Source of the DNA: Minisyncoccota bacterium
GTDB lineage: Bacteria > Patescibacteriota > Minisyncoccia > Phycocordibacterales > UBA1006
Direction: 5' to 3'
DNA length: 64,000 nt
Assembly: GCA_021209525.1 (NCBI GenBank)
Contig: JAJOIF010000004.1
Span: 35,730-99,729 of the forward strand
Shown: positions 1-27,506 of the stretch, piece after piece
Position numbering within the stretch: the first letter of the stretch is position 1
Layout: the number at the start of each line of letters is the position of its first letter
Position numbers and translations under genes: made by a program
Notes under the pieces: model-generated
What the model was told of the DNA's origin: nothing
Seen by the model: only the letters and a program-made list of their open reading frames with translations
Databases searched by the model: none

Positions 1-1
1 G

Positions 2-142
2 GCTCTCGTCTTTCTTGAAAGAAAAACACGAGATATGTACGACTTTTTGAAGTCACGCATCAAAGGAAAAGTAGTGCCTCGTATCACCTTTATCAAAGAT
101 GAGGGAGAGAAAAACAGACAACGTATTGACCTCTTGGTATAA
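2..142 (+). CDS. 3' end of an upstream gene (partial; C-terminal 46 aa ...RIDLLV*)
   Basis: Open frame enters the window and stops at TAA 140-142; product not recognisable from the fragment. Confidence 0.3.
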   Translation, partial: ALVFLERKTRDMYDFLKSRIKGKVVPRITFIKDEGEKNRQRIDLLV

Positions 143-195
143 AAAACGTAATATAGTACTGTATTTTCAAGATACATCGATCTGTTCAAGATCGT

Positions 196-267
196 GGCGT
201 GGTGGCGAAGTGGTAACGCTGCGGTCTGCAAAACCGCCATGCGCGGGTTCGATTCCCGCCCACGCCT
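196..267 (+). tRNA. tRNA-Cys (GCA)
   Basis: Cloverleaf read by eye: acceptor GGCGTGG/CCACGCC, anticodon arm GCGGT-CTGCAAA-ACCGC, T-arm GCGGG-TTCGATT-CCCGC. Confidence 0.85.
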
Positions 268-304
268 CAGAGTGATTCATTCACTCTATCAGACACACCC
301 ACTT

Positions 305-386
305 GCCGGAGTGGTGAAATTGGTAGACACGCTTGCCTTAGGAGCAAGTGCCTTCGGGCATGCTGGTTCGAGTCCAGTCTCCGGCA
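305..386 (+). tRNA. tRNA-Leu (TAG), long variable arm
   Basis: Acceptor GCCGGAG/CTCCGGC, anticodon loop CTTAGGA, long variable arm, T-loop GGTTCGAGTCC. Confidence 0.85.
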
Positions 387-414
387 CCCATAGAGAAGAT
401 TATCTTCCCTATTT

Positions 415-495
<81 letters not shown>

Positions 496-575
496 ACGAG
501 AGGAATGACGAGTACATCTGGTTGTATGCTCTTTAGAGTATACATTGAGGGCGAGCTCTTTTTCATTGTAGATAT

Positions 576-659
576 GCCGAGATGGTGGAATAGGTAGACA
601 CGAGGGACTTAAAATCCCTTGCTAGCAATGGCGTGCGGGTTCGATTCCCGCTCTCGGCA
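576..659 (+). tRNA. tRNA-Leu (TAA), long variable arm
   Basis: Acceptor GCCGAGA/TCTCGGC, anticodon arm with loop CTTAAAA, T-arm GCGGG-TTCGATT-CCCGC. Confidence 0.85.
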
Positions 660-1012
660 CAGAAAATATTAGTTCTGCAAGCGATAGCTTGTGGAACTTT
701 TATTTTCGTGTTGAGACGGGAATCAAAAAAAGTGAGCAATGCCGCACGGAGCAGAGCGAGTACGGCGCGAACGGCGTGGTCAGGCGAATGAGCTCGCAGC
801 GAGCACTTATGTGCGAAGCGAGAGCCATGAGGGTGACCGATTCCCGCTCTCGGCACAGCTTAAAGTGCCCTGGCCCGCTCAGCGGGTCCTCGGCACAGAA
901 AATACACGCCACGTGGTGTCACAGATGATATGATCCCTATGTGCGTGTTTTACGTTACATAAATATATTTGACGTGGTTACTTCTACAAGCGATAGCTTG
1001 CAGAACTTTTAC
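660..1012. repeat. Degenerate direct repeats of the tRNA-Leu(TAA) 3' end plus its downstream flank (att-like scars) enclosing a ~330-bp GC-rich segment
   Basis: cgattcccgctctcggcacag (639-659) recurs at 839-858. ctcggcacagaaaata (651-667) recurs at 888-905. tctgcaagcgatagcttgtggaactttta (676-704) recurs as tctacaagcgatagcttgcagaactttta at 983-1011. Confidence 0.5.
676..712 (+). terminator. Candidate rho-independent terminator of the tRNA cluster (short palindrome caagc-gat-agcttg then T-rich tract)
   Basis: Palindrome CAAGCgatAGCTTG followed by gaacttttattttcg. Confidence 0.35.
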
Positions 1013-1162
1013 ATTTGCCGCGTTTACCCCATCAGCCCCGTCAGACGGGTTAGGCGAGGCCAATGCGGCATGCTTGCGTATTCCGGGAATGGGTGGTTAT
1101 AAAATTTGACTTTTATACCTAATTATGCTATAATATACTTAAATACGGACTTTGAAAATGCG

Positions 1163-1229
1163 TGTTAGTGAATATATTCCCCGTGATATTTCGTTGGTAG
1201 TATATTCACTAACACTAAAAAAATAAAAA
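1163..1229 (+). promoter_or_regulatory. 70-bp palindromic leader, copy 1 (16-bp inverted repeat GTGTTAGTGAATATAT / ATATATTCACTAACAC with ~24-nt spacer) ending at the ATG of the downstream gene
   Basis: Near-identical copy (1 mismatch) at 1713-1779. Contains TATATT -10-like hexamers. Confidence 0.5.
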
Positions 1230-1622
1230 ATGAAAATATTTACAATCATCGCTGTGATATTTCTAGGAATCTTCACGGTAAACCTCTTGATCAAACCATT
1301 TGGTCAAGGAAGTATAGAAAAAATTTCTCATATTCAAGATGAATATGAGGGCAGAGGTCTTTCTCCTGGTGATTTTTGTTTTTCGCTGTACAAAAGCGAA
1401 GAGCAGGCCAAGAAAAAAGGCTATAATGTGACCCTGCCTACGGGCAAGACACAAGTATGGCGTGTACCCAACATAGATATAGTGATTGCCGACAAGTACG
1501 GCATCATTATCGGTGAAATAGGGCCCGGCAAGCCCTACTTGCCCATCAATGGAAATAAATTCTATGTATGGGCAAAAGAAAAAAAATATACAGGTGAAAC
1601 ATTCTGTATAGAAATTAAGTAG
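1230..1622 (+). CDS. Small membrane-anchored protein (N-terminal TM, beta-rich C-terminal domain); possible NfeD-like partner of the downstream SPFH protein
   Basis: ORF with N-terminal hydrophobic segment MKIFTIIAVIFLGIFTVNLLI. Sits next to an SPFH gene. Shares the same 70-bp leader. Confidence 0.45.
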   Translation: MKIFTIIAVIFLGIFTVNLLIKPFGQGSIEKISHIQDEYEGRGLSPGDFCFSLYKSEEQAKKKGYNVTLPTGKTQVWRVPNIDIVIADKYGIIIGEIGPGKPYLPINGNKFYVWAKEKKYTGETFCIEIK

Positions 1623-1636
1623 CTCTGTGTAAAAAT

Positions 1637-1672
1637 TAAAGCAAGTCAAAAGACTTGCTTTTTTATTTTATA
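1637..1672 (+). terminator. Rho-independent terminator
   Basis: Hairpin aagcaagtc-aaaa-gacttgctt followed by TTTTTTATTTT. Confidence 0.5.
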
Positions 1673-1712
1673 TATGTTATAATACATATAAATAAGAGCC
1701 TTAACAAAGATG

Positions 1713-1779
1713 TGCTAGTGAATATATTCCCCGTGATATTTCGTTGGTAGTATATTCACTAACACTAAAAAAATAAAAA
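1713..1779 (+). promoter_or_regulatory. 70-bp palindromic leader, copy 2
   Basis: Identical to 1163-1229 except one T/C difference. Ends at the ATG of the SPFH gene. Confidence 0.5.
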
Positions 1780-2829
1780 ATGAAAGAAACAACAAGAGAA
1801 TTTGCTGGTGGAGACATTGCCAGTAATTACCTCATCTCATCAGTACTTGCTGCAGGTGTAGGATTCATATGTGCACTCATTGGCTATGTTGTAATAACAA
1901 TAGCTGGTGAACTTACGGATTCTTTGGGAGGTATTATTCCCAAAGAGGTAAAAACTGGGATCAGCATAGGCCTTGCGCTTATGGGAATCATGGTATTCAA
2001 GGGCAAGATGAAAAACTGGGCTCACCAGGTAAAGGTGGGAGAGGTTCACATTGTAACCTTTTTTGGTCAACCAACCGAAACCATCCTTGAACCGGGAGAC
2101 AGATTTCTTCCTTTCAAGAAAAAGGTGTTTGATATTATTATTAGGAGTATTTTAATTGAGAGTATTGCATCAAAAGACAAAGTAGATGCAATATCAAAAG
2201 ATACTATTCCTTTATCAATTGATAATGTAGAAATACGCTATCAATTAGACAAGGATAATATCTTGAAAACTCTTGATGTCAACCTTGACACACTCAAGAA
2301 AGACCTGGAGTCAAATGTACTTACCTTTGTACGCCAGGTGATTAGTAAACTTGAGTGGGATAAAGTTACCGGGATAAAGGATTTGACGAATGGACTCCGT
2401 TTTGACAAAAATAAATCGGAGACAGAAATCAAAGCCGAGCTGGAGAAAAAATTTGAAGACATTGGCGTTCATGCCGATGATATTAAAATTTGCATTGAAT
2501 ACGCAATGTCAATCTTAGAACAAAGCAAGCAATACGGATTTGTAGTACTTGCTATTCAAATCGGAGATGTTATTTTATCTGAAGCGTTTAAAAAAGCAGC
2601 CGAGAAAAAGAAAATCGAAGAATTTGAAAGGGATGCCGAGCGTACTGAGGCTAATCACACCCTTGAATTAGTTGATGCGATGGTTAATCGCATGATAGCA
2701 CAAGACCCTACCATCAACAAAAAAGAAGCCTACGAGATCGCGGTGGCAAATGCCAACATGATCAAAGGCAAAGACGTTAAAATCATCCACACTTCTGGAA
2801 AAGGAGGCGGATTGATTAATAATGTGTAA
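1780..2829 (+). CDS. SPFH/band-7 (stomatin/prohibitin/flotillin-like) membrane protein
   Basis: N-terminal TM. Motifs resemble the SPFH core (HIVTFFGQP...ILEPGDRFLPF; ISKDTIPLSIDNVEIRYQL; VVLAIQIGDVIL...AAEKKK...AE). Confidence 0.55.
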   Translation: MKETTREFAGGDIASNYLISSVLAAGVGFICALIGYVVITIAGELTDSLGGIIPKEVKTGISIGLALMGIMVFKGKMKNWAHQVKVGEVHIVTFFGQPTETILEPGDRFLPFKKKVFDIIIRSILIESIASKDKVDAISKDTIPLSIDNVEIRYQLDKDNILKTLDVNLDTLKKDLESNVLTFVRQVISKLEWDKVTGIKDLTNGLRFDKNKSETEIKAELEKKFEDIGVHADDIKICIEYAMSILEQSKQYGFVVLAIQIGDVILSEAFKKAAEKKKIEEFERDAERTEANHTLELVDAMVNRMIAQDPTINKKEAYEIAVANANMIKGKDVKIIHTSGKGGGLINNV

Positions 2830-2845
2830 TCCTAATTTTTACAAA

Positions 2846-2916
2846 CAAAATCCTACGCAGTATTGCGTAGGATTTTTTCTATACAAAAAAACCGCCCATG
2901 TAGATGAGCGGTTTTT
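2846..2916. terminator. Two hairpins forming a bidirectional terminator region between convergent genes
   Basis: aatcctacgcagtattgcgtaggatttttt and aaaccgcccatgtagatgagcggttttt. Confidence 0.5.
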
Positions 2917-2924
2917 ATTGTGTA

Positions 2925-3218
2925 TTAGATTCTAATATCAGCACCAAGCGTATTAATGAGAATACGCATAATACCAAATACTGAAACCATAATAAACATA
3001 CCAATGATTCCCCAGAGCATATGCTGCCTTCCCTCTTGAGCTTTTTCAGTATTTCCCTGTTTATAAACAAAAAATTGAAGCATACCAATTAAAAAGAGGA
3101 CGAGTGCCAGCGCAAAAAAGAATACAATGAGCGGATTAATGATGACTTCGTATACACGAGCCATAAAATTTCCTACATTATCTTCAAGTGTTTGTGCAAA
3201 TGCGGTAAGTGGAAACAT
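2925..3218 (-). CDS. Small secreted/membrane 'pilin-like' protein, paralog family member 1 (C-terminal TM-loop-TM hairpin)
   Basis: C-terminus LIVFFFALALVLFLIGMLQFFVYKQGNTEKAQEGRQHMLWGIIGMFIMVSVFGIMRILINTLG is shared with the next four genes. N-terminus looks like a truncated signal peptide. Confidence 0.5.
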   Translation of the reverse strand: MFPLTAFAQTLEDNVGNFMARVYEVIINPLIVFFFALALVLFLIGMLQFFVYKQGNTEKAQEGRQHMLWGIIGMFIMVSVFGIMRILINTLGADIRI

Positions 3219-3226
3219 AAAAAATA

Positions 3227-3589
3227 CTAGAGTACAACACCAGGGATTTGTGACGGCGCGAGAGTTCCTCCTTGCTGAATACCAAAGGTATTGTTAACAA
3301 TACGAATCACTCCAAAAATAGATACCATCAAGAAAAGCGCGATAATTCCTTGAAGCATTACATCCCGCCCTGCTGCTTTTTTGGTATCATCTTTTGCAAT
3401 GATATAATTAACCATTCCCCAAATAAAGTACACAAGTCCAAGTGTAATCAAAATAGGGATAATTCTACCTAAGAGCGTACCAATAGTTTGTAAAATATTT
3501 CCTGCATTTGGTCCTGTAGATACGGTAATTTGAGCAAATGTTGCAAATGGTGTCAAAAGTGTTGCAAGGGCTCCTAAAAATTTTTTCAT
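3227..3589 (-). CDS. Small secreted 'pilin-like' protein, paralog 2 (signal peptide + C-terminal double-TM hairpin)
   Basis: Signal peptide MKKFLGALATLLTPFATFAQ. C-terminus IPILITLGLVYFIWGMVNYIIAKDDTKKAAGRDVMLQGIIALFLMVSIFGVIRIVNNTFG. Confidence 0.55.
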   Translation of the reverse strand: MKKFLGALATLLTPFATFAQITVSTGPNAGNILQTIGTLLGRIIPILITLGLVYFIWGMVNYIIAKDDTKKAAGRDVMLQGIIALFLMVSIFGVIRIVNNTFGIQQGGTLAPSQIPGVVL

Positions 3590-3699
3590 AGTTATGAATG
3601 ATGTTAATTATAAATAAACGACATGTAATCTAATAATGTGTACCTTTTATTATACTACAGAGTATTGGGAAAGGTAAAGAGGAAGGGGTAAAAAATATA

Positions 3700-4095
3700 T
3701 TATCGAAACTGTGGAATAGCAAAAACACTGAGGCCGAAAGTATTGGTGAGCATTGCAACAATTCCCCAAATAGAAATCATAACAAATAACCCAATGATGC
3801 TCCACAACATGAACTGACGCCCTTCTTCACGCTTTGTTTGATCTCCGGCATTTGCAATAAACTTAACCATACCAAACATAAACATAACGAGCGCCAGAGA
3901 AATAATGAGGGGTACAATAGTTCGACTAAGGAGGCACGTGCCGTACACAAAAATATCTCCCAAAGTATTAAATTGTGCGGCACATGTATTGCTTTGCCCT
4001 TGTTGTGCATACGTGACAAGCGGCATACCGAGCAGTGTAATTGCGCCAAAACCTGTGGTATAAAGTGATTGTTGTAGTCTGGTGAAGTATTTCAT
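3700..4095 (-). CDS. Small secreted 'pilin-like' protein, paralog 3
   Basis: Start chosen at MKYFTRL (signal-peptide-like), which removes the overlap with the next gene. C-terminal LIISLALVMFMFGMVKFIANAGDQTKREEGRQFMLWSIIGLFVMISIWGIVAMLTNTFG. Confidence 0.5.
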   Translation of the reverse strand: MKYFTRLQQSLYTTGFGAITLLGMPLVTYAQQGQSNTCAAQFNTLGDIFVYGTCLLSRTIVPLIISLALVMFMFGMVKFIANAGDQTKREEGRQFMLWSIIGLFVMISIWGIVAMLTNTFGLSVFAIPQFR

Positions 4096-4117
4096 AGAAG
4101 TAATAGCTTGGGACATA

Positions 4118-4615
4118 TTAAGCTCGTAATTGATTAATCGTACCGGCAATAGCATTTGCAATAATCACAGCTCCGAGCACGAGCGCTCCGCCGATAATAA
4201 CATAGAGGAATGTTTGCTTGGCCTCTTTGAGTTTATTAGGATCTCCTTGAGCCGCAATAAAGAGAAAGCCTGAATAAATAATAGCGAGTGCCACTAATGG
4301 TACAGCAATAAGTAGAGCGATATTTAAAATAGTGCTCACAAGACTTGGAATACTATCTACCGACCCTTCGAGAGGGTTTTTAAGATATGCAAAATCAGCA
4401 CCACGAGTACTTGATGTATCGCCAGGCCCCATAGTATCAGGATCATTTGTAGTTCCTCCGCCCGCGGCTGGAGTTGAGGTGGTCCCTCCTCCACCTATTG
4501 TATCTGAAACGGAAATCTGTCCATGCACAATATATTGCGGAGTCACTCCAATCAAGAAGAATACTCCGAAAAGCACGAATAAATATTTAATTGCGGTAAT
4601 GGTTATGTATTTCAT
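4118..4615 (-). CDS. Secreted 'pilin-like' protein, paralog 4, with Gly/Thr-rich linker
   Basis: Start chosen at MKYITITAIKYLFVLFGVFFLIG. Linker GGGGTTSTPAAGGGTTNDPD. C-terminal IALLIAVPLVALAIIYSGFLFIAAQGDPNKLKEAKQTFLYVIIGGALVLGAVIIANAIAG. Confidence 0.5.
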   Translation of the reverse strand: MKYITITAIKYLFVLFGVFFLIGVTPQYIVHGQISVSDTIGGGGTTSTPAAGGGTTNDPDTMGPGDTSSTRGADFAYLKNPLEGSVDSIPSLVSTILNIALLIAVPLVALAIIYSGFLFIAAQGDPNKLKEAKQTFLYVIIGGALVLGAVIIANAIAGTINQLRA

Positions 4616-4664
4616 GATATATCTCTTATGAATAAAATCTTTCTTATTGTACGTCACTTATGAC

Positions 4665-6758
4665 CTAGAAATCAAGGAAGCGGTATGCTTGATCGACACC
4701 AAGCGTTGAAAGGATCAGACTAACAATGAGCCATGCTGCCATAACAAATATAATTCCAAGCACTACTTTTCCAAAAATACTGCTTGCGAGTTTTCTCTTG
4801 TCTGGACTGGCACCACCGGTAATATACAAGAATCCGGCATACATAAATGCAATAGCTGCAATTGGGAAAATGAGCGCAAATGCAAAATTGATAAGGTTTT
4901 GAATGAGAATGATAATATGTTTAAATTCACAATCTTCGAGACCTGAGTGTCCACATGGTACCAATCCTACTTCTGAAACTGCATATTGCGTATTAGTTGA
5001 AAAACCCGCAAAAGCTTGATTGCCGGCACGCGGCTCACCAATATTACCTTGCCCTGAACCTGAAATAGAACCAGAAATTGGACCAGTTACATTTCCTTCA
5101 AATGCACCGCTGTCAATACTGCCGGAGGTCGGACCAGTTACATTTCCTTCAAATGCACCGCTGTCAATACTGCCGGAGGTCGGACCAGTTACATTTCCAG
5201 AAAAGGCACTGCTGTCAATATCCCCTGACGATATTGACTCTGGATCTAAAATCATCCCTAAAGATGTTCCTGCAATAGGTACTCCATCTTCGTACACTAA
5301 TGCAAAATACTCTCTGTTCATAGTGATAGGAATTCTTTGTGTGCCGTCAATTGATTCATAATTACTAAAGAAATTAAAAGCAAAAGATCTATTACCTGTA
5401 CCATAGACACGCTCAGTATCGGTAATAATTTGACTTGTCCATGATGAACCGATACTAAAATCAATACGCCCCACTCCTGTACGAGGCGTGCGCATATCCA
5501 CCGCATAACTGATTACATTTTGAAAATCAGGCGTGCGGCTTATAAAGCCAGCAAATTGCTGACTTTCAAATTTTACATCAATAGCATTTGCGGGTTCTGC
5601 AAATGCGGGTGTTTGTTGAAATGAAGCCAATTGGCCATTTACATAGAGTCCAAGGTAATATTTTTGACCTGGCACCACAAAATTATCACTATGCTGTGTC
5701 GGATCATATGTTCTATAGTAATAAAAAGATGGTGATGAGAGTACTTCACGAATCAATATTTTTGAATTATGCTGCGCAAAGTTTGGTGTCTCGCTCAATA
5801 CTACAGCAATATCAATTTCTGATTGATTCCCAGGGAAATCACCTAAATCACCCTGCAAAAGAATATCAAAAATATAATCATCATATTCATCAAGTTCTAC
5901 ATCAATGAGCCATCGGATAAATGGTCGATAACTTACCCGAAAATAGGACCCTGATTCTGTTTCAGGAAATGAAGATGATTCTGTTTCTGTAATCTGCGTA
6001 AAACCAGAAGATGTTGTAGAGAGCGTTCCTTGTCCTGTTGAAAAAGGAAGTGGCCCAGGCACTGCAGAGGCAAATGCCTGCTGGCTAATAAATGACCAAG
6101 ATGAAGAAAGCGCTTCGCCCGGACTTTGTCGAAATGCATACGACCCTAATGTGTATGAATTAAAAAGTGTTCGAGGTACATTATTGCCACGTATGTATAC
6201 ACGAACTACGAGAGGTGTATTTTGAGGTAATATAGCTGCAGGATTAAGGCTATTGTCAGCACGCACACCACGTTCATCAATTACAATAGCATCAAGTGGT
6301 TGAATGGAGGATCGGAATTGAATAACATTATCACCATTCACATCAAATGCCGCGGCAATGGGAACTTCATGAATACGGTGCCATAATTCCCCTTGCATAT
6401 CTTCGAGATGGAATTCTAATACATAATTTTGAGCAAGAGCAGCATCGGCATAATAAATAGCCGGAGATACAGCAATATAATTTTCAAAAACCTCGGCAGT
6501 GAATACAGTACCATTTGCTTGCTGTTGCGTATGCAAGAAATTTGTATCCGGAGTAATAAAACGATGTCCCGTTTGTAATTTTTGAGGAACTTGAAAACCT
6601 TGCGTATTTGCACCTGTCCAATCAATGGTGATAAGGTCAGTTGGCAATGTTGATTGCGCATGCACATAGCCGCCGATCACACCAAAAATCGCAACGCATG
6701 CAACTGCTAGCAAGAATCCTTTTTTGAAAAATGTAGTAATGAAAGAATGAGATGACAT
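4665..6758 (-). CDS. Large secreted surface protein (697 aa) with 17-aa tandem repeats and the same C-terminal double-TM 'pilin-like' domain
   Basis: Signal peptide, large extracellular region, repeats TSGSIDSGAFEGNVTGP. C-terminal FALIFPIAAIAFMYAGFLYITGGASPDKRKLASSIFGKVVLGIIFVMAAWLIVSLILSTLG. Confidence 0.6.
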   Translation of the reverse strand: MSSHSFITTFFKKGFLLAVACVAIFGVIGGYVHAQSTLPTDLITIDWTGANTQGFQVPQKLQTGHRFITPDTNFLHTQQQANGTVFTAEVFENYIAVSPAIYYADAALAQNYVLEFHLEDMQGELWHRIHEVPIAAAFDVNGDNVIQFRSSIQPLDAIVIDERGVRADNSLNPAAILPQNTPLVVRVYIRGNNVPRTLFNSYTLGSYAFRQSPGEALSSSWSFISQQAFASAVPGPLPFSTGQGTLSTTSSGFTQITETESSSFPETESGSYFRVSYRPFIRWLIDVELDEYDDYIFDILLQGDLGDFPGNQSEIDIAVVLSETPNFAQHNSKILIREVLSSPSFYYYRTYDPTQHSDNFVVPGQKYYLGLYVNGQLASFQQTPAFAEPANAIDVKFESQQFAGFISRTPDFQNVISYAVDMRTPRTGVGRIDFSIGSSWTSQIITDTERVYGTGNRSFAFNFFSNYESIDGTQRIPITMNREYFALVYEDGVPIAGTSLGMILDPESISSGDIDSSAFSGNVTGPTSGSIDSGAFEGNVTGPTSGSIDSGAFEGNVTGPISGSISGSGQGNIGEPRAGNQAFAGFSTNTQYAVSEVGLVPCGHSGLEDCEFKHIIILIQNLINFAFALIFPIAAIAFMYAGFLYITGGASPDKRKLASSIFGKVVLGIIFVMAAWLIVSLILSTLGVDQAYRFLDF
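5080..5232. repeat. 51-bp tandem repeat (two perfect units plus degenerate flanking copies) inside the 697-aa surface-protein gene
   Basis: ggaccagttacatttccttcaaatgcaccgctgtcaatactgccggaggtc at 5080-5130 and 5131-5181, with a diverged third unit. Confidence 0.85.
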
Positions 6759-6762
6759 AATA

Positions 6763-8052
6763 TTATGGTAATAATTGAACTAATCCTGCATGCATACGAC
6801 GTATTGCATCGTCTACGCGAACTCTACCTGATGCCGTGTCTTGAATGACAGCGCGCCAGAGTTCACGCGTCGCTTGAGGGTCTGGATCGGGCCACGACCT
6901 TGCACTGATAGCACTATTATAAAACATAAGCCATAGAGGATCTGTGGGTGTCTCTCGTAATAATGATCGCTGCACTGGTGGCACAAAGAATTGATCCCGA
7001 AGGTACGCCCCTGCAAATGGTTGAGCAAATTGCTGTGCGACCAAATATGCGCCTGGGATATTTTGAGACATACGACTTATCCCCACAAAAGTGAGACGAC
7101 CTGATGTTGCGCGTAATTGTGTGTCCCGCATTTGAGGCATCATACGCACATCAAAATTCAAATTCGGATTACGTTCTCGTAATAATCGCGCTTCACTTGC
7201 ATATCCAAAATACAGAGCAAGCGTTCCTTCAATGAATGCGTCTTGATCATTTTTTTGAGCGGTGCTCCATGAGTACGCTGGCTGCGCAGGATTTGAAAAA
7301 GTTGTGTAGAAACGAACCGCAGATGCTGCAACACCTCCTTCTTGAAAAACAACCACGGGTTCACGAGCTTCGTTACGCCCCACGAGAGGATTACCCGCTT
7401 GGAGCATAATGAGTTCAAGCACATCGGTCCCATGCGTAATATTTGCAAATGTACCCATTGCCACGAGAGACTGACGCAGTGCTCCTGCGTCGTTTTTTTG
7501 TACAATACGAGGCGCCAAAGCAAAAAACTCATCCCAAAAAACAGGAGGATCTACGACAAAAGAAGATGCGAGAATATCTCGGTTTACATACATAACCATT
7601 GGGTCAACCATAATAGGAAAACCAAGAACCCCTTCGGTGTCAACAAGCATTTCCGCCTGATCAATAAAGGTTTCGCGCACTGTTTCTGGTGGATAGCTTT
7701 CAAAAGGAATAGCAAATAATTTATTACGATGCGCAAGGAGTGTTTCATCGGTCACAAAAAAGAGATCAGGGCCTCTTCCTTCTGCAAGGGCACGTAATAA
7801 TTCACGGTCAAATGTTTGTGCATCTTTTTGAATATAGGAAACTGAAAGATTGGGGTACAAATCATCAATAGTTGTAATGAGCGGTGCCATGCCTTCTTGA
7901 GGTAAGGTACCCCACACAACGATAGCACCTGAAGGGCCGGCATTCCTCCCTCCTCCGCCTTGGCTCCCTGATGTTGCAAAAAGTGCAAAACCGATCAAGG
8001 CTCCTATTCCAAAAATAATGAGAAAGATTGTTTGAAAGTCTAATTTTTGCAT
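6763..8052 (-). CDS. Membrane-anchored extracellular solute-binding-like protein (ABC SBP family 1 fold)
   Basis: N-terminal TM, Gly-rich linker. Motifs IVVWGTLPQ..., GPDLFFVTD, MYVNRDIL are typical of MalE-like SBPs. First gene of the operon. Confidence 0.5.
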   Translation of the reverse strand: MQKLDFQTIFLIIFGIGALIGFALFATSGSQGGGGRNAGPSGAIVVWGTLPQEGMAPLITTIDDLYPNLSVSYIQKDAQTFDRELLRALAEGRGPDLFFVTDETLLAHRNKLFAIPFESYPPETVRETFIDQAEMLVDTEGVLGFPIMVDPMVMYVNRDILASSFVVDPPVFWDEFFALAPRIVQKNDAGALRQSLVAMGTFANITHGTDVLELIMLQAGNPLVGRNEAREPVVVFQEGGVAASAVRFYTTFSNPAQPAYSWSTAQKNDQDAFIEGTLALYFGYASEARLLRERNPNLNFDVRMMPQMRDTQLRATSGRLTFVGISRMSQNIPGAYLVAQQFAQPFAGAYLRDQFFVPPVQRSLLRETPTDPLWLMFYNSAISARSWPDPDPQATRELWRAVIQDTASGRVRVDDAIRRMHAGLVQLLP

Positions 8053-8155
8053 ACGATACGATATATTATAAGTTGTTCCTTATTGTACCACATCAATTCC
8101 TTTTTGTAGCATACACCTGTGTATACCTCTTTCTATCGCCGTATGTGCGCTGCGA

Positions 8156-10609
8156 CTACAAAAGCGTGAGCGAAGCAATTTCATCACCTGCACGCAATTT
8201 CATAATACGCACCCCTTGTGTGGCGCGACCAAGCACTGAAATATCTTCTAAGGCAGTACGAATCACTTGACCTTTTTTAGAAATTACAATAACTTCAGTA
8301 TACGAAGCATCTACCACGCGAGCACCCACCAAGAGACCTGTTTTTGCGGTGAGTTGTGCGGTTTTAATGCCTGAACCTCCGCGATTTTGCACCTTGTATT
8401 CAGAGAGCTGTGTACGCTTACCAAAACCATTATCCGTTACCACGAGCATGTGCATCTCAGCAGCTACAGGAGTGATAACATCTACACTCACGAGCGTGTC
8501 ACCTTTTTTAAGTGCCATACCCTTGACCCCTGCGGCACCGCGCCCCATAGGACGAATATCAGCATTCTTGAAACGCACTGATTGACCATTACGAGACGAC
8601 ATAATAATGTCATCGTCTTCTGACAAGAGGCGCACATCAAGCAAGAGATCGTCACCCTTGAGCGAAAGTGCAATGAGCCCATTTCTGCGGACATTTTTGA
8701 ATTGATCAGCGGCTACTTTTTTGACAATACCTTTTTGAGTTGCAAAGAAGAATGACAATGTTTTTTGTTGTTCTGTTTTAGGAATAGCAAGAATTGAGGT
8801 GACTTTTTCATCATCAGCCAGTTGCAAGAAATTCATAATTGACTTGCCTTTGGTTGCGCGTTTTGCTTCGGGAATTTCGTACATCTTGATCGAATAGACC
8901 TTACCCATATTGGTAAAGAAAAGGAGGTCACTCTTAGTGCTCGTCACCAAGAGATGCGTCACGACATCTTCTTCTTTGGTTTCCATATCAACAACACCTA
9001 CGCCACCGCGTTTCTGTGCTTTGTATTCAGATGGATCAGTACGTTTTACATATCCTCCTTGAGTAAATACGAGTGCTGATTCTTTGTCTTGGACAAGGTC
9101 TTCGTCTGAAATTTCAGCAACACCGCGAGCTACGACACGTGTGCGTCGCTCGTCATTGTATTTTTCTTTGAGTTCAAGTAATTCGTCTTTGACGACTGCA
9201 AGCATTTTTGCAGGGCTCGCAAGTAATGCTTTGAGCGACTTAATGAGTTTGAGCATTTCTGCTAATTCATCTTCGATTTTCTTGCGCTCAAGGCCGGCAA
9301 GTTTTTGCAAGCGCATATCTAAAATAGCCTGAGCTTGAATATCAGAGAATTTGAATTTTTTAATAAGGTTTGCTTTGGCTGTAGGAGTATCAGGTGATGC
9401 TTTGATGGTTTTAATAACTTCGTCAATATGATCGAGAGCTTTTTTGAGACCTTCTAAGATATGCGCACGCGCTTCGGCTTTGCGTAAATCAAATTCTGCG
9501 CGACGCTTGATGACTTCTCGGCGGTGATCAATAAAGTTCACGAGAATGTCTTTGAGTGACAATGTTTGCGGCACACCATCAACGAGAGCAACGAGGTTAA
9601 AGTTAAAATTGCTTTCAAGGTCAGTATGTTTATAAATATAGTTCAAAATACGCTGCGGATTAATACCTGTCTTGAGTTCAATAACAATACGAATATCATG
9701 TGTTGATTCATCACGCAAATTTTTGATACCTTGAATTTTCTTGTCACGCACCAAATCCGCAATCTTGAGAATCAGATTCGCCTTGTTTACACGATATGGA
9801 ATTGAGGTAATGATAATTTGGAATGCACCACGAACGCTTTCTTCTATGGTTGCTTCGCCACGCGTCACAACACCGCCACGCCCTGTTGCATAAGCATGAG
9901 CGATATCTTTTTTGTTATAGATGACACCCCCTGTTGGAAAATCAGGCCCTTGTACATATTGCATCAAATCTTCATTGGTCGCATTTTTATTATCAATAAG
10001 TGCTACCGTAGCGTCAACCACTTCACCGAGATGGTGTGGCGGAATATTCGTCGCCATACCCACCGCAATACCCAATGTTCCATTCAAGAGCAGGCTTGGT
10101 ACTCCCGCAGGAAGCACAATAGGCTCTACTGTAGACCCGTCAAAGTTTGGACGAAAATCAACAGTTTCTTTGTTAATGTCGCGCATGAGTTCTCCTGCAA
10201 GCTTTGACATTTTTGCTTCAGTGTAACGATACGCAGCAGCAGCGTCGCCGTCAATAGAACCAAAGTTCCCTTGCCCAATAACAAGAGGATACCGGAATGA
10301 GAACTCTTGAGCCATACCCACCATAGAATCATATACGGCAGAGTCACCGTGCGGGTGATATTTACCGAGCACATCCCCTACAATAGTCGCTGATTTTTTG
10401 AAGCGTGCACTGGCGGTCAAATTGTTTTTGTACATAGAATACAAAATGCGACGATGTACCGGCTTGAGCCCATCGCGCACATCAGGAAGCGCACGCGAAG
10501 TAATCACGGACATAGAATACGCCAAAAATGAATCTTTCATTTCTTGGACAATAGGTACTGGTTCAATATGATCGTGAGGTGTTGATACGGGTGATTCTTT
10601 TTTAGCCAT
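8156..10609 (-). CDS. gyrA: DNA gyrase subunit A
   Basis: 817 aa. N-terminus [34 protein letters not shown] and C-terminal beta-pinwheel repeats. Confidence 0.95.
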
Positions 10610-10650
10610 AGATGATACAAGTATACTACAAATGAATAATTAATTAAAGT

Positions 10651-11076
10651 TTAAAGCTCTGTTTCGGATGTCTCGGTAATGTCTGTAATAGTGAGTTCGC
10701 GTTCTGCGGCGAGCTGTTCTTGATTTTCATTTGCAATACGACGCAGGCGTTCTTGCTCTAGTCGTTCAAAAAATGCCGCCTCGTCAACCTCTTGGGTAAG
10801 TTCTTCGGTGCCAATATTTTGAAAGAGTTCCGCGGCGTCCCTGCGGACACTTGGTCTATGTGCTTGAAAATCTTTGAATTGACTAGAGATTGATTGACGC
10901 AAGGCTTGAACTGGGCGAGCAGCCGAAGAGCGCTCCCTGCGATTATCTTCAAAGCGTCCAGCAATTAAGGCTATCCATATGCCTATAATACACAGCAATA
11001 TGACGAGCGAGATAATGAGTGCATAACGGCGACGTTCTGTATGAGTTTTCGTGCGTAATGTTTTCAAGAAATCCAT
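10651..11076 (-). CDS. Hypothetical single-pass membrane protein
   Basis: ORF with TM ALIISLVILLCIIGIWIALIA and an acidic C-terminal tail. Confidence 0.4.
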   Translation of the reverse strand: MDFLKTLRTKTHTERRRYALIISLVILLCIIGIWIALIAGRFEDNRRERSSAARPVQALRQSISSQFKDFQAHRPSVRRDAAELFQNIGTEELTQEVDEAAFFERLEQERLRRIANENQEQLAAERELTITDITETSETEL

Positions 11077-11090
11077 AAGGCGAGAACGGA

Positions 11091-11708
11091 TTATGCAAGC
11101 GGTATAATTTCTGCTTTCTTACCTGCAAGGTCTTTGTATTTGAGAGTAAGTTTTGGTTCTGCGGATACTTGCGCATCACCACCCTCTTTGACAAATTGAG
11201 TAAGTGATTCTTGGTCATATCCCATAGGGATAATAATGTGAGGATTAAATGATACCGCTAATTTATGAGCTTCTGCTGGCATCAAAAGTCCTTGCCCCAC
11301 AGGAACAAAGATGATATCTACATCTTCGATGACTTCTTGGACGGCGGCGGGGATTTCCTTGCTCGTTAATGCTCCTAAAAAGAGAATCTTGATATCGTCA
11401 AAGGTAAAGTAGTAGATAGTATTAATATATTCGCGCCCATCTAGAATAGTTTGCGTCATGAGCCCTTGGATAAAGTACCCATGCACTTCATATGATCCAG
11501 GACTATCTATAGTAAAGGGTTCTTTGTCGCCATAGGTAACATTTTCAAAACCATGATAGAGAGGATGCTGTACACTTGAAAGTGCTATATCAGCACCAAA
11601 TTTTGACACCTTGCCAGAGTCGGTATCTTTGCCGATAGGGTTAAGTGCGATAATGGTATCCCCTACTTGTAATTTAAAGAATTGTTTGCCGTGATGCGTA
11701 ATAATCAT
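11091..11708 (-). CDS. MBL-fold metal-dependent hydrolase (UPF0173-like)
   Basis: 205 aa with beta-lactamase-fold-like features (HHGKQ..., VPVGQGLLM, HIIIPMGYD). Confidence 0.55.
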   Translation of the reverse strand: MIITHHGKQFFKLQVGDTIIALNPIGKDTDSGKVSKFGADIALSSVQHPLYHGFENVTYGDKEPFTIDSPGSYEVHGYFIQGLMTQTILDGREYINTIYYFTFDDIKILFLGALTSKEIPAAVQEVIEDVDIIFVPVGQGLLMPAEAHKLAVSFNPHIIIPMGYDQESLTQFVKEGGDAQVSAEPKLTLKYKDLAGKKAEIIPLA

Positions 11709-14316: not shown

Positions 14317-14507
14317 TTGTGAACTTTTTGTTTCGTTCTATGACCCATTATGTATTCAATTGATATACACAATCAGGCTTTTGCCTCTTCTTAACGCAGA
14401 AGAGGAACGTGTGCCAATTTTCGAACTTGAGCACAATTGTTCGTTGCGTATAGACACAACATCGACCAATATACTAACGGTCAAAGACTCGTATAGTATT
14501 GGCAAAT

Positions 14508-15968
<1,461 letters not shown>

Positions 15969-17232: not shown

Positions 17233-17412
17233 TATGAAATCCCTCCGACACGGAGGGTTTTGTTGTGAATTACCCTTTGTCACCCCAAAGGAGGAAGAGT
17301 GTCACCTCATATGGTTAACTATACATTTACTTACAAATATTTCAGAAATAATGTATACTCTATGCACAAATGTCTTTCGGGATCCATCTCTTGTTTTCAA
17401 GAGAGGGAAATA

Positions 17413-17450
17413 AGAAAAACTCAGAACAGTACTGTTTTGAGTTTTTCTTT
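17413..17450. terminator. Bidirectional terminator between convergent LOG and mazF-like genes
   Basis: aaaaactcagaacagtactgttttgagttttt. Confidence 0.55.
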
Positions 17451-17870: not shown

Positions 17871-18025
17871 GGAATTGCTGGATCATAATTATTTTTCATA
17901 ATCGTTCCTACTGCGCGCGCAGCTTTGGGGTTTCCTGTGGCGCGTGCTACTTCGCCATAGGTCATGACAGAGCCTGCGGGTATTTTTGATACGACATGGA
18001 GGACTTTTTGGGTGAAGGTGGGCAT
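17768..18025 (-). CDS. Methylated-DNA-protein-cysteine methyltransferase DNA-binding domain protein (MGMT/Ogt family)
   Basis: 85 aa with the active-site motif PCHRVI and a helix-turn-helix region. Confidence 0.75.
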   Translation of the reverse strand: MPTFTQKVLHVVSKIPAGSVMTYGEVARATGNPKAARAVGTIMKNNYDPAIPCHRVILSSGKAGAYNRGGEDAKKELLQREGVEV

Positions 18026-18077
18026 AGTAAATTAGAGAATGGTGATGAATCATGATTTTAACACTATTTCATTCATC

Positions 18078-21000
18078 TCATACACATATCCAAAATTTTG
18101 AGGTTTTTGATTCGATCAAGCCTTCATCATACGGCTCAGGTAGTTCATCATATAAAACATCTTTGATGGTTACTAAAACTTTTGCTCTGCCTTGTTGAGT
18201 TTTTCTCCAATCCAAAACAAATGCTGTTTGCTTTAGTGTTTTAAGTAACTCTTTTGCAACTTTTTTAATTTCCTTGATTTCATTTTCTTTCAAGTCTTCT
18301 TTGTAAAGCAAATCAAAAATCGCAAGCTCTTCTTCGATTAACTCTTCTCTCACTCCTCTTTTTTCCTCATCATTCAAAGATTCAGCAAATTTCATCAAAG
18401 CCTCAAAAAACTCTTCAATATTTTTTGAGCCAGAATTATATTCTGAAAGTAATTTTTCAAATTGCTCTACTAGTTTTTGTCTAGTCGGGTTCAACCTCAC
18501 CAATTCTTCAAGTTTTTCTTTCAAGGACTGCTTCAATTTTTCTGCTTCTTTTCTTTTATTTTTCTCAAAATACTTTCGCAATTTTTCAAAATCAATCTTA
18601 CTCAAATCATATGGTTTGTAATCTTCAGAAATCACATACCCTTCAGCAGTAATCGCATTATCAAGAAGCTCTTCAATAGCATCTGCAACGTCTTCTACAT
18701 TCACATCTTTTCGAGTCAGAATTCGCACCCTCTCTGCTAAAACTCGATACAATTTAACCACATTGAAAAATTCACTCGCGCTTGGGTCTGGCATAATAGC
18801 CCCCAAAAGACTCGTCGCACGATTACTCATCGTCAAAAATTCGTTCTTTGATTCTTCATCGGTCAAAATAGCATCAACTGCATTTTCTATTAAAGCCAAT
18901 TTTTCAAAATCTACTGCTTCACCAATTTGCACAATATTGATTCCATATTCACTACAATATTTATCAAGCTCGCCCAAAACTCCTCGTAATTCATTTACCA
19001 GTTCTGTTTTTGGTTTTATAGGCTTTGCATCTTCATCACCTCGCGCTCCATAAATAGCCAATGCTTTTTTCAGACTTCGAAATACTCCGATATAGTCCAC
19101 AATCAATCCATTTGTTTTTGCGCCCCACACACGGTTTGCACGAGCAATGGTTTGCATCAGAGTATGATTTTTCATTGGCTTGTCCAAATACACCGTCGAA
19201 ATAATCGGAGCATCAAATCCAGTCAGCCACATATTACACACAATCACAATTTTCAAAGGATCATTTACATCTTTAAATTTTTTTTCCAAATCCTCATTGA
19301 TCATTCTTCGGCGATGAGTTTCTATATCAAGCCCAAGCTTTCGGAAATCATCCACTTCGTTTTGAGTCGAACTCATCACCATCGCAATATCAGGACAGTT
19401 TGGCTGCGTTTTCATTTTGTTATACATTTTCACCGCAGTTGGTCGATCTATCGCCACAAACAACGCCTTACCATCATTCCCTTGGCTGTTAAAATGTTCA
19501 ATCACATCACGGGCAATAGTGTTCAATCGTTCTTCTCTCGTGATCAAATGATATTCAGTATTAAATTCTCGTTCAAGCTTTTTCTCTTGATCATCATCAA
19601 GCTCAAAAGTTTCAAGCACTGTTCCCAAATCCTGCCCTAAACTCTCCAAATCAATCTGCAGCTCTGGAATACGGTTATCGTAATACAAAGGCACTGTTGC
19701 CTTGTCATCCACAGACTGCTTAAAATCATAAATACTGACATAATCTCCAAAAGTGCTTTTGGTTTGTTCTTCTTCGCCAGAAATAAGCGGTGTTCCGGTA
19801 AAACCAATAAATGAAGCATTCGGTAAAGCCCGACGCATATTGAGCGCCAAAGTGTCATACTGACTTCTGTGTGCTTCGTCAGTCATCGCGATAATATCGC
19901 TTCGCTCTGAAAGTACAGGAAATTCCGTCTCGCCTTCTTGCAATTGGAATTTGTGAATCAAGGTGAAAATATTGCGATGGTCTTCGGTTAAAAGTTCGCG
20001 AAGTTTTTGCACACTGCTTGCACGTACCATTTCTTCTGGTTCAAGCACTGCACCCACACCGGCAAAATTTGCATAAATCTGCTTGTCGAGTTCCTGCCTG
20101 TCTGTTACCACAAGAAAAGTATAATTCCCTTCATATTTTCGCAAAATCTTTTGAGCGAAAAATACCATAGAATAACTTTTTCCTCCTCCTTGTGTATGCC
20201 AAAAGACCCCAATTCGCCCATTGTTTTCTTCTCGCTTTTCAAAAGATTTAATCGCATTATTTACTCCCAAATACTGATGATTTTTCCCAATCAATTTTAT
20301 CATCCCTTTGTTTGTATCTTGAAACAATACAAAGTTTTCAATAATATCAAGTAAACGCGTTTTGTCGCACATACCACGAAGCAAGGTTTCCAAATCCACC
20401 CTTCCTTTTTCTTCTTCATCACTAATTCTTTTCCAATCAGAAAAATGTTCAAATCCGCTCGTAATAGAACCCATCTTTGCATCAAGTCCGTTTGAAATAA
20501 TCAAAAGCTGGTTATACCAAAACATCTGCGGAATTGTGTCTTTATAGTCTCGAATATTACCATCAAAGGCATCTCGCAAGTTTTTGTGCGCAGCCTTAAG
20601 CTCGATAAACACCAAAGGCAAACCATTCACAAACCCCACCAAGTCCGCTCGGCGTTTATACATATCACCCAAGATCCACATTTGCGATACCAAAGTAAAA
20701 TGATTGTTCTCTGGATTATCAAAATCAATCACACGCACCGTTTCCACATCACGAGTTCCGTCACCGCTCACCACATCCACCTTGACCCCGTTTTTCAAAA
20801 GCTCATAGATTTCTTTATTCGCTTTGACCATACTCATTTTTGAGCGGTCTTTGGTGATTTCTTCTATTGCATCATCAATGGCACTTTTTGCAATGCTTGA
20901 ATTCAATTTCTCCAAAGTAGTCCGAAGACGAGAAACCAAGACAACCTGACCCTGATGTTCTCGCCCAAGCTTTGCATCACCTTCATCAGTATAGGCATTT

Positions 21001-21092
21001 ACAAAATCCATTTCGCCGTCGGTACCCCAAAGCTCCGACAAAAGCCGGATTACGGGTTGCTCTATGAGATTGTCTTCGTTGAAGGGGTTCAT
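18078..21092 (-). CDS. hsdR: Type I restriction enzyme R subunit
   Basis: 1004 aa. SF2 helicase motifs including MTDEAHRSQY (DEAH), GGGKSY, and a C-terminal coiled-coil. Confidence 0.9.
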   Translation of the reverse strand: MNPFNEDNLIEQPVIRLLSELWGTDGEMDFVNAYTDEGDAKLGREHQGQVVLVSRLRTTLEKLNSSIAKSAIDDAIEEITKDRSKMSMVKANKEIYELLKNGVKVDVVSGDGTRDVETVRVIDFDNPENNHFTLVSQMWILGDMYKRRADLVGFVNGLPLVFIELKAAHKNLRDAFDGNIRDYKDTIPQMFWYNQLLIISNGLDAKMGSITSGFEHFSDWKRISDEEEKGRVDLETLLRGMCDKTRLLDIIENFVLFQDTNKGMIKLIGKNHQYLGVNNAIKSFEKREENNGRIGVFWHTQGGGKSYSMVFFAQKILRKYEGNYTFLVVTDRQELDKQIYANFAGVGAVLEPEEMVRASSVQKLRELLTEDHRNIFTLIHKFQLQEGETEFPVLSERSDIIAMTDEAHRSQYDTLALNMRRALPNASFIGFTGTPLISGEEEQTKSTFGDYVSIYDFKQSVDDKATVPLYYDNRIPELQIDLESLGQDLGTVLETFELDDDQEKKLEREFNTEYHLITREERLNTIARDVIEHFNSQGNDGKALFVAIDRPTAVKMYNKMKTQPNCPDIAMVMSSTQNEVDDFRKLGLDIETHRRRMINEDLEKKFKDVNDPLKIVIVCNMWLTGFDAPIISTVYLDKPMKNHTLMQTIARANRVWGAKTNGLIVDYIGVFRSLKKALAIYGARGDEDAKPIKPKTELVNELRGVLGELDKYCSEYGINIVQIGEAVDFEKLALIENAVDAILTDEESKNEFLTMSNRATSLLGAIMPDPSASEFFNVVKLYRVLAERVRILTRKDVNVEDVADAIEELLDNAITAEGYVISEDYKPYDLSKIDFEKLRKYFEKNKRKEAEKLKQSLKEKLEELVRLNPTRQKLVEQFEKLLSEYNSGSKNIEEFFEALMKFAESLNDEEKRGVREELIEEELAIFDLLYKEDLKENEIKEIKKVAKELLKTLKQTAFVLDWRKTQQGRAKVLVTIKDVLYDELPEPYDEGLIESKTSKFWICV

Positions 21093-21105
21093 ATTTATAC
21101 TATAA

Positions 21106-22209: not shown

Positions 22210-22213
22210 AATT

Positions 22214-23383: not shown

Positions 23384-23455
23384 AAATTCTTGTTTGTGGA
23401 TAACTATTTACATTTTTGACCATTTTTGATATATTGTAAATGTAGGTTTTTCCTA

Positions 23456-24166
23456 CTAATCACGCGGTCCCGCTTTTGCGGGATTTTCGCTTTTTGGCTC
23501 GTAATTTCTTTTTCCTGTATAGAGTCGCCCAAAATCAAAATATTTATCTTTAATTTTATGCAGTTCTTCTGCGACTTGATTTCTCACTCCACAAATCCCA
23601 ATCTTTTTATTTTCAATTTTCAATCTTTGTAAAGGACCCTGCATATCAGAATCCCCAGAAAACAAAATAACTGCAGAAAACTTTTTTGCATCATCTAATA
23701 TGTCCATAGTCATCTCTACATCAAAATTACATTTTGGTTCTTCTATTAAAATACCTGGTTTATGTAATTCGTCTACAAGTTCTTCAATTTTACTTTTTAC
23801 ACCATCATCAAAAAGAGTCATAGTTTTACGCTGAAAAAACATTCCTTCTTTTATTGTCTTGGGAATATACTTCATTGGTTTTGTTTTTAGGATTGCACCA
23901 GTTTTTAAAATTCTTTTATGAAAAGCTTTTGAGTTTTTCAAATCTCTGGTATTTAAACCATAGTAAACTTTTATTTCTTGAATATTTTTATATGTTTTTA
24001 GTTGTTCTATCAAGTCTTCTATTCTAAATTTCCAACCCAAAACATCTTGCCAGTGGAACATATTTGTTAAATCCAAATACACAAAAACCACAGGCTCTTT
24101 TTCTAACCATTCTAGATAGTCTTCTCTTACCATAATTTTATTTTTAATATCCTGTGGTATTTCCAT
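23456..24166 (-). CDS. NYN-domain (LabA-like PIN-fold) nuclease
   Basis: VFVYLDLTNM... and AVILFSGDSDMQGPLQRLKIENKKIGICGV match the NYN/LabA fold. Confidence 0.65.
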   Translation of the reverse strand: MEIPQDIKNKIMVREDYLEWLEKEPVVFVYLDLTNMFHWQDVLGWKFRIEDLIEQLKTYKNIQEIKVYYGLNTRDLKNSKAFHKRILKTGAILKTKPMKYIPKTIKEGMFFQRKTMTLFDDGVKSKIEELVDELHKPGILIEEPKCNFDVEMTMDILDDAKKFSAVILFSGDSDMQGPLQRLKIENKKIGICGVRNQVAEELHKIKDKYFDFGRLYTGKRNYEPKSENPAKAGPRD

Positions 24167-24167
24167 A

Positions 24168-24272: not shown

Positions 24273-24273
24273 G
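24201..24273. repeat. 75-bp direct repeat, copy B
   Basis: caacttcacccttttccactttgccttgcgagttttctccccactattcttttgtgtcgtttgtgtagtcatg matches copy A. Confidence 0.8.
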
Positions 24274-24276
24274 TAT

Positions 24277-27497: not shown

Positions 27498-27506
27498 ATT
27501 GTTATA

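Follow-up and report, generated by a model that had tools for sequence, protein, structure and literature searches.

Why should two adjacent genes begin with almost the same leader? The question arises in a 64,000-nt stretch of DNA (hereafter the window) from an uncultured Minisyncoccota bacterium, a member of Candidatus Pacebacteria (assembly GCA_021209525.1, contig JAJOIF010000004.1, positions 35,730 to 99,729 of the forward strand), where a direct repeat of 74 bp runs into the start of two neighboring open reading frames (ORFs), referred to here as gene 1 and gene 2, the latter encoding a SPFH/Band 7 protein. The features that we observe are the repeat, its hairpin, the compensatory conservation of that hairpin, a fixed distance to the ATG, consensus promoters, and a terminator. 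We favor, with moderate confidence, the reading that the repeat is a sense-strand RNA element in the mRNA leader, acting as a determinant of stability or processing or as a protein-binding site.

A Leader Repeat in Two Copies

The initial annotation described a 70-bp segment present twice (1163–1232 and 1713–1782, one mismatch) that takes in the ATG and second codon of two genes. This duplication is real and slightly longer: on the plus strand, 1162–1235 (copy 1) and 1712–1785 (copy 2) are identical at 73 of 74 positions, with T1165 versus C1715 as the sole mismatch. Each copy consists of a hairpin (1162–1215 and 1712–1765), an A-rich tract (1216–1229 and 1766–1779), and an ATG AAA that forms codons 1 and 2 of two different ORFs (1230–1235 of gene 1 and 1780–1785 of gene 2). 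Two matches to the 54-mer were found in 0 of 100 dinucleotide-preserving shuffles of the sequence.

An assembly artefact, which had been raised as an explanation of the identity, can be eliminated. The NCBI metagenome-assembled genome GCA_021208345.1 (L001), 99.9% identical to window positions 1–11618, holds both copies with the same T/C difference, and its homopolymers elsewhere differ from those of the window. Contigs of GCA_021208725.1 (L028) and of the Logan assembly SRR12390696 (L002) end or begin inside copy 2, a pattern typical of true repeats. All four assemblies or samples seen have the copy at the SPFH gene. We note separately that a T5 homopolymer in gene 1 (window 1373–1377) is T6 in L001 (about 10036). 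The resulting frameshift leaves gene 1 of GCA_021208345.1 annotated as a 94-aa protein, LRY46_02020, and the difference probably reflects an error made in sequencing or assembling that record.

Each Copy Lies Downstream of Its Own Predicted Promoter

Gene 1 is preceded by a predicted plus-strand promoter at 1106–1134, composed of TTGACT, a 17-nt spacer, and the extended −10 element TGcTATAAT, which scores 11/12 plus TG in a consensus scan. From this promoter, transcription is predicted to start at ∼1141, giving a leader of ∼89 nt. An intrinsic terminator follows gene 1 on the same strand at 1638–1671, with a 10-bp stem at 1638–1661 and then TTTTTTATTTT. The gene 2 promoter, also on the plus strand (1655–1683), was read from the sequence: a weak −35 element, TTGCTT, sits within the descending arm of the terminator and is separated by 17 nt from the extended −10 element TGtTATAAT (1675–1683). 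The consensus scan does not list this promoter because its −35 element matches at 3/6 positions only. Its predicted start is ∼1690. The two hairpins begin 27 and 28 nt past the −10 boxes, and sequence differences between the predicted leaders of ∼89–90 nt are confined to the first ∼20 nt.

Since a separate consensus promoter stands ∼28 nt before each copy and the two genes have a terminator between them, we read the repeat as a shared 5′ leader. The proposal that the repeat itself drives the genes is not supported, as each gene has a near-consensus promoter upstream of it and the terminator stem at 1638–1661 lies between them. The locus thus appears to comprise two transcription units sharing one leader module, made up of a 54-nt hairpin, a 14-nt A-rich tract lacking a Shine-Dalgarno (SD) sequence, and the start codon.

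The Leader Is Predicted to Fold into a Long Hairpin with a Free Start Site

Folding of the RNA in context gives −25.7 kcal/mol (z = −4.9) for copy 1 and −21.2 kcal/mol (z = −4.5) for copy 2, both strong and significant folds. The 54-nt stem-loop of copy 1 (1162–1215, plus strand) is built from 17 consecutive pairs including one U·G, an interior loop, two C-G pairs, and an apical mini-stem. At the DNA level, a perfect 16-bp inverted repeat with a spacer of ∼24 nt had been described; the inverted repeat and its spacer stand, but the perfection and the length do not. The 3′ arm, GTATATTCACTAACAC, begins with G rather than A, leaving 15 Watson-Crick pairs plus a T/G, and 22 nt separate the 16-nt arms. 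The T-to-C difference in copy 2 places a C·A mismatch at the fourth pair and lowers the stability of the hairpin alone from −24.3 to −20.0 kcal/mol.

The tract that follows the hairpin in copy 1 (1216–1229, plus strand) is 14 nt long, reads CTAAAAAAATAAAA A, lacks an SD sequence, and is a predicted unpaired translation-initiation tract. Together with the AUG, the tract is unpaired in the minimum free energy (MFE) and centroid structures of both copies (1216–1235 and 1766–1785). A switch that occludes the ribosome-binding site, whether an RNA thermometer or a riboswitch expression platform, was rejected for this reason. Among the three interpretations offered initially, a 5′-UTR (untranslated region) hairpin controlling translation is the best supported, provided that simple occlusion of the start site is dropped from it.

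Two further candidates were discarded. An intrinsic terminator or attenuator does not fit: on the plus strand an A-run comes after the hairpin, on the minus strand a T-run comes before it, and the terminator scan does not list it. A leader peptide encoded by an upstream ORF (uORF) fares no better. Copy 1 has a 22-codon uORF (1158–1226), and the relative described below has an ATG in the same register, but copy 2 reads ATG TGC TAG; the frames through the 3′ arm also differ between the two lineages, and no peptide is conserved.

The Hairpin Is Conserved by Compensatory Change in a Distant Relative

The closest homolog of the SPFH protein, P0003, is encoded on contig L019, a sequence that recurs on L020; these two contigs represent the sole informative lineage found in public data. 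The neighborhood on L019 is that of the window: a gene for a 139-aa protein, the SPFH gene, and then convergent T4SS-pilin-like genes. The 139-aa protein is the ortholog of the gene 1 product, with 24% identity over the full length (E 8e-9) and both Cys kept. Its gene has a promoter equivalent to that in the window (TTGACA-17-TGcTAATGT) and, at 389–443, a 55-nt hairpin followed by 14 nt of A/T-rich sequence and the ATG. Both hairpin size (54 vs 55 nt) and the 14-nt distance to the ATG are therefore the same or nearly so in the two lineages. A terminator lies after gene 1 at about 895–929, arranged as in the window, and the gene 2 promoter (CTTGCTTTTTTT..TGCTATAAT, with an extended −10 element) aligns with that of the window. 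The SPFH gene of L019 also begins with ATGAAA, and its leader is short and unstructured, without a hairpin.

One 26-pair helix fits all three sequences (the two window copies and the L019 hairpin) in an alignment, A4, in which 90.8% of cells are paired, versus 28–51% when the partners are slid by 1–3 columns. Eight of the 26 pairs are altered on both sides, for example from G-C to U-A, U-A to G-C, G-C to A-U, C-G to U-A, and A-U to U-A. The window hairpin has 22 predicted pairs, with 25 of the 26 aligned positions able to pair, and that of L019 has 24 predicted. Most of the lower-stem sequence is shared between the lineages (GTTAGTRAATAT / ATATTYACTAAC). In the upper stem, identity has fallen to only ∼37%, near saturation, yet pairing is retained at 9/11 and 10/12 positions (p of about 0.006 and 0.011 in shuffles). 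Compensatory changes of this kind across two independent lineages are what a conserved structured cis-regulatory RNA would be expected to leave in its sequence.

The strand on which the hairpin acts can be approached from the same comparison. For the hairpin alone at the gene 1 copies, the sense strand folds to −24.3 kcal/mol versus −20.7 for the antisense strand in the window, and to −29.0 versus −18.3 kcal/mol in L019. The sense strand is the more stable at both because the imperfections are G·U pairs on that strand. Action on the sense strand is supported by the predicted folds, not proven.

More distant SPFH loci (L024, L025, and L027) keep the neighborhood of SPFH, small, pilin, and SBP genes in reversed order, with SPFH first and the small gene second. 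In two of the three, stop and start codons overlap; their leaders are of the AAGGAG SD type and carry no hairpin. Sequence comparison does not demonstrate that the small genes in these loci are homologous to gene 1. The hairpin would thus be an old feature of the gene 1 leader, ancestral there and copied to the SPFH gene, because L019 has it before gene 1 only. The SPFH copy, in turn, appears to be lineage-specific and to stem from a recent duplication or gene conversion, since the SPFH gene of L019 is plain-leadered and the distant loci are SD-type without a hairpin.

Searches for Further Copies or Known Families

A covariance model (R1) built from the three copies found no further copy in 113 kb (the 64-kb window, 8.6 kb of flank, and related loci), so that the window has only the two. 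Rfam gave no family over either copy: a permissive scan (E ≤ 10) of positions 1–4000 returned nothing over 1160–1235 or 1710–1785 except a weak antisense match to rliF (18.5 vs 60 bits), and the gathering-threshold scan of the whole window listed tRNAs and 16S only, with no leader family.

An arm-pattern scan of 185,579 representative genomes produced 16 matches. Each is a long, perfect palindrome from an unrelated genome (Firmicutes, Bacteroidia, and others), and neither its loop nor its context is that of the window hairpin. A degenerate arm pattern gave three matches in JGI metagenome contigs, all unrelated: two are the same Bacteroidetes-like locus, at a TetR gene start beside a TolC-like gene, and the third is a palindrome between convergent genes. 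Nothing relevant was found in IMG/VR viral contigs, INPHARED phages, or PLSDB plasmids. At the Bacteroidetes-like locus (L021, 4692–4736; the same in L023), the TetR-family gene, which neighbors the TolC-like gene, is preceded at a distance of 2 nt by an inverted repeat with the 12-bp palindrome GTGAATATTCAC; we regard this repeat as a chance match to the arm pattern and likely the operator of that TetR-family regulator.

A Model for the Shared Leader and the Evidence Against It

In the model that we favor, the repeat would be a portable 5′-leader module, in which an imperfect 54-nt stem-loop of about 22–25 pairs stands 14 nt upstream of the start codon and is followed by an unstructured A-rich tract. 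The module would be ancestral and under selection in the gene 1 leader, and would have been copied recently, by segmental duplication or gene conversion, to the leader of the adjacent SPFH gene. Both mRNAs would be transcribed from the upstream promoters through the hairpin, which would set mRNA stability or processing, or bind a protein. An RNase III-type enzyme suits the stem length of 22–25 pairs, and the predicted hairpin offers the double strand of such a substrate (∼20 bp or more, mostly continuous); the sequence conservation of the lower stem hints at a factor that recognizes it specifically. Ribosomes would be recruited by the A-rich tract independently of an SD sequence, in a genome without SD/anti-SD pairing. 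Both partner genes would then share one post-transcriptional signal and one initiation region in substitution for operon coupling, and so come under one regime; the more distant relatives would co-express them as an overlapping operon. We infer, rather than observe, that transcripts include the hairpin and that it works as RNA; the same holds for the factor that would read it.

Several observations weigh against this model. The single difference in copy 2 creates a C·A on the sense strand and a G·U on the antisense strand, so that copy 2 lacks the sense-strand bias, and shuffling of the upper stem, taken alone, does not tell the strands apart. The hairpin does not sequester the start site; therefore, no simple on/off mechanism follows from the structure. 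Boxes resembling a −10 element (TATATT) lie within both arms, and copy 2 has in addition a TTAACA match to the −35 element (TTAACA-16-TATATT), so that transcription may start inside the hairpin. Twelve pairs of the lower stem (GTTAGTRAATAT / ATATTYACTAAC) are invariant, which would also suit a protein that reads DNA half-sites. The covariation statistics are weak because only two independent lineages are available. With two taxa, moreover, loss of the hairpin from gene 2 of L019 is as parsimonious as its gain in the window lineage; there may have been loss in L019 and homogenization in the window lineage, and in either case sequence has recently been transferred between the leaders.

Alternative Explanations

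The SPFH copy could be a neutral by-product, with no regulatory role, of a recent microhomology-mediated duplication or gene conversion between A-rich leaders 550 bp apart. Identity at 73 of 74 positions implies a recent event, the sole difference weakens the stem of copy 2, and the SPFH gene of L019 functions without a hairpin. Microhomology is plausible as well, since the block ends in A-rich sequence and an ATGAAA that was probably already present in the ancestral gene 2. The distances from promoter to hairpin (27 vs 28 nt) and from hairpin to ATG (14 nt) are nevertheless kept as in gene 1, the copy is fixed in all four assemblies or samples, and a leader hairpin of 20 kcal is unlikely to leave expression unaffected. 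We consider this explanation unlikely.

A DNA operator was the first of the interpretations put forward initially, as a shared operator/promoter for a dimeric regulator. Its promoter part falls with the separate promoters upstream of the repeat. What is left would treat the conserved 12–14-bp arms as inverted half-sites about 40–41 bp apart from center to center, or four helical turns, at which a repressor, dimeric or tetrameric, would either halt elongation that began at the upstream promoters or silence weak internal TATATT promoters, and thereby co-regulate the two genes at transcription. Each arm is conserved at 11/14 positions between lineages whose proteins are 24–31% identical, and the spacer sequence is not; a change from G-C to A-T appears in mirror image in the two arms, the pattern of half-sites that co-evolve; and the spacing of the arms is constant (40 vs 41 bp). 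The TATATT boxes in the arms and the TTAACA-16-TATATT match in copy 2 speak for it too, as does the chance palindrome with the same core (GTGAATATTCAC) at a TetR gene start in an unrelated genome, such cores serving as operators. A DNA-binding dimer, however, has no need of a self-complementary spacer, and the spacer is self-complementary in both lineages despite its turnover. The imperfections are G·T, which become wobble pairs in the sense RNA only. The position, about +21 to +74 from near-consensus promoters, is unusual for an operator, no regulator gene is adjacent, and the copied block takes in 20 nt of translation-initiation region for which an operator has no use. We disfavor the DNA operator and rate it as quite improbable.

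We hold it to be equally doubtful that the stem-loop and its 14-nt A-tract constitute a new class of initiation or regulation module for leadered mRNAs in a bacterium without an anti-SD. In such a scheme, either a dedicated factor or the ribosome itself, at the margin of its footprint on the mRNA, would recognize the hairpin, which in this way would place the 30S subunit or control its loading; genes that received a copy of the module would be joined in a small post-transcriptional regulon instead of an operon.

The remaining proposal, a mobile palindrome (a miniature inverted-repeat transposable element, MITE; a repetitive extragenic palindrome, REP; or a Correia-like element) that was inserted upstream of both genes and donated promoters, is highly improbable: it would account for the terminal inverted repeats of 15–17 bp around a short core and for the two near-identical copies, but there is no third copy in 113 kb, the viral, phage, and plasmid sets hold nothing and the genome and metagenome scans unrelated palindromes only, target-site duplication is absent from the flanks (TGC/TAA and GAT/TAA), the block of identity is not symmetric (it reaches from the left base of the hairpin to 20 nt past its right base), and vertical inheritance is indicated by the homologous hairpin that a very distant relative carries at the orthologous place and spacing.

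Comparison with Known Systems

Leader RNA remains the reading that we favor, and known leader elements provide a frame for it. The 5′-UTR stabilizer stem-loops, such as those of the Escherichia coli ompA leader, the Bacillus subtilis aprE leader, and the phage SP82 stabilizer, lie within a few nucleotides of the 5′ end. Like these, the window element is a stable leader stem-loop that stands upstream of the ribosome-binding region without overlapping it and is portable between genes. Unlike these, it is predicted to be preceded by ∼20 nt of single strand, and its stem is longer (22–25 pairs), with a lower half that is conserved in sequence.

RNase III-processed leader hairpins include those of the E. 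coli pnp and rnc leaders and the processing sites of phages T7 and lambda, which have no fixed 14-nt spacing to the AUG. The window hairpin resembles them in its predicted imperfect stem, whose length of at least 20 bp corresponds to about two helical turns, and in keeping its size, 54 versus 55 nt, while its upper sequence drifts. It differs in standing at a fixed 14 nt from the AUG. Translational operator hairpins (the MS2/R17 coat-protein operator, the thrS operator, and ribosomal-protein leaders) include or abut the SD sequence or AUG. The fixed short distance to the start codon is common to both, and the partly conserved stem suggests specific recognition here as well; in the window, by contrast, the 14-nt tract and AUG are free.

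Correia repeat-enclosed elements are MITEs of 100–155 nt that fold in mRNAs, bind RNase III, and change the expression of neighboring genes (PMC2649163). The window element shares with them an inverted repeat with −10-like boxes that would form a hairpin if transcribed and that lies immediately upstream of genes. It is, on the other hand, not dispersed, lacks a target-site duplication, is copied as an asymmetric block, is 54 nt in size, and is vertically inherited at one locus.

It is plausible, then, that the element is a new cis-regulatory leader RNA, limited in public data to two lineages of the candidate phyla radiation (CPR). To our knowledge, almost nothing is known of gene regulation in CPR/Patescibacteria. 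A functional leader RNA, if this is one, would be among very few candidate cis-regulatory RNAs described for them. It could show how genomes that are mostly leaderless and lack SD/anti-SD pairing express a minority of leadered mRNAs, and a leader copied to a partner gene would be a clean natural example of regulatory wiring by 5′-UTR duplication rather than by operon formation. Its practical value is limited, as the organisms are uncultured and the element is found in two lineages only.

The Two Genes and Their Neighborhood

Gene 1 (1230–1622, plus strand) encodes 130 aa, with an N-terminal membrane anchor, a β-rich domain of ∼100 aa, and two conserved Cys. It has no match in Pfam, NCBIfam, or PADLOC and belongs to no known family. 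A single-sequence AlphaFold2 model has a mean pLDDT of 48.6, too poor for a fold search. Gene 2 (1780–2829, plus strand) encodes a very divergent membrane-anchored SPFH/Band 7 protein of 349 aa, in which Pfam PF01145 (Band_7) covers residues 83–291 (E 2.1e-12, 47.9 bits against a cutoff of 23.6) after a hydrophobic N-terminal region. An exhaustive HMMER search of 1.84 billion representative proteins found six homologs at E ≤ 1e-3, the nearest 31% identical. A k-mer-indexed protein search returned only the query itself, and a profile search added none. Scans with PADLOC (defense systems) and NCBIfam gave no meaningful match for either protein.

The pair had been called NfeD-like/SPFH in the initial annotation. 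The second half of the name is borne out (Band_7, E 2e-12); the first is not. With Pfam at E ≤ 1, an NfeD (PF01957) signal is absent from gene 1, its L019 ortholog, and the small neighbor genes of the distant relatives, and NCBIfam has no NfeD match for gene 1 or the ortholog. As in NfeD-SPFH (stomatin/flotillin) operons, a small membrane-anchored gene lies beside an SPFH gene, and the pairing recurs in distant CPR relatives; unlike such operons, gene 1 carries no PF01957 signal at that threshold and the two genes are separate transcription units.

Beyond gene 2, two back-to-back bidirectional terminator hairpins (2836–2916) lie between it and five consecutive T4SS-pilin-like genes (PF18895; 2925–6758, minus strand) that converge on it. 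One of these encodes 697 aa and includes tandem 17-aa (51-bp) repeats at about 5080–5220, with a difference of one unit from the Logan contig L002.

Translation Initiation in This Genome

The 16S rRNA gene lies at 14504–15959 on the minus strand, as located by the Rfam gathering scan. Its 3′ end (14504–14530) reads GATCAACTCATT, where the usual bacterial sequence is GATCACCTCCTT; the anti-SD CCUCC has therefore been lost. With ORF starts taken as mechanical first-start calls, an SD-like motif precedes 2 of the 58 long ORFs in the window, and at least 13 of the 58 have a −10-like box ending 4–14 nt from the ATG. These counts suggest that leaderless or very short-leader mRNAs are widespread in this genome. 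Because SD sequences are rare and −10 boxes lie near the ATG, a structured leader of ∼90 nt is exceptional here. The A-content of its A-rich tract, 0.73, is tied for the highest upstream of any ORF in the window. We also note that the altered 16S tail, UCAUUU, is complementary to AAAUGA, a start context common in the window. No 23S or 5S was found in the 64-kb window by the gathering scan, so the rRNA genes appear unlinked.

Additional Features of the Window

The region upstream of the gene 1 promoter has repeats of its own. Directly upstream of this promoter in L019 (146–310) are ∼8 tandem copies of an 18–19-bp unit (TTTACCGCGTNNTACGTGG-like), which may be an array of binding sites; the window holds only degenerate remnants of the unit at about 1011–1060 (TTGCCGCGTTTACCCC...). 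Farther upstream, between 576 and 1011, 3′-end fragments of tRNA-Leu(taa) recur downstream of the tRNA at 824–858 and 889–904, and the terminator hairpin of this tRNA (669–702) recurs at 978–1011, with ∼150 bp of GC-rich sequence between; these repeats look like att-like scars of integration or excision at the tRNA. A terminator-like hairpin, TTCTGCAAGCGATAGCTTG, is conserved together with the ∼30 nt preceding it in L019 (97–137) despite the large divergence.

Elsewhere in the window, the GC content at 18000–32000 is 0.28–0.37 versus about 0.42 in the remainder, with a strongly negative GC skew and all genes on the minus strand. Very long, near-perfect intergenic palindromes flanked by A/T runs occur at 25856–25909 (26-nt arms, 92%) and at 17412–17449 (19-nt arms, 95%, no loop), and both are probably bidirectional terminators.

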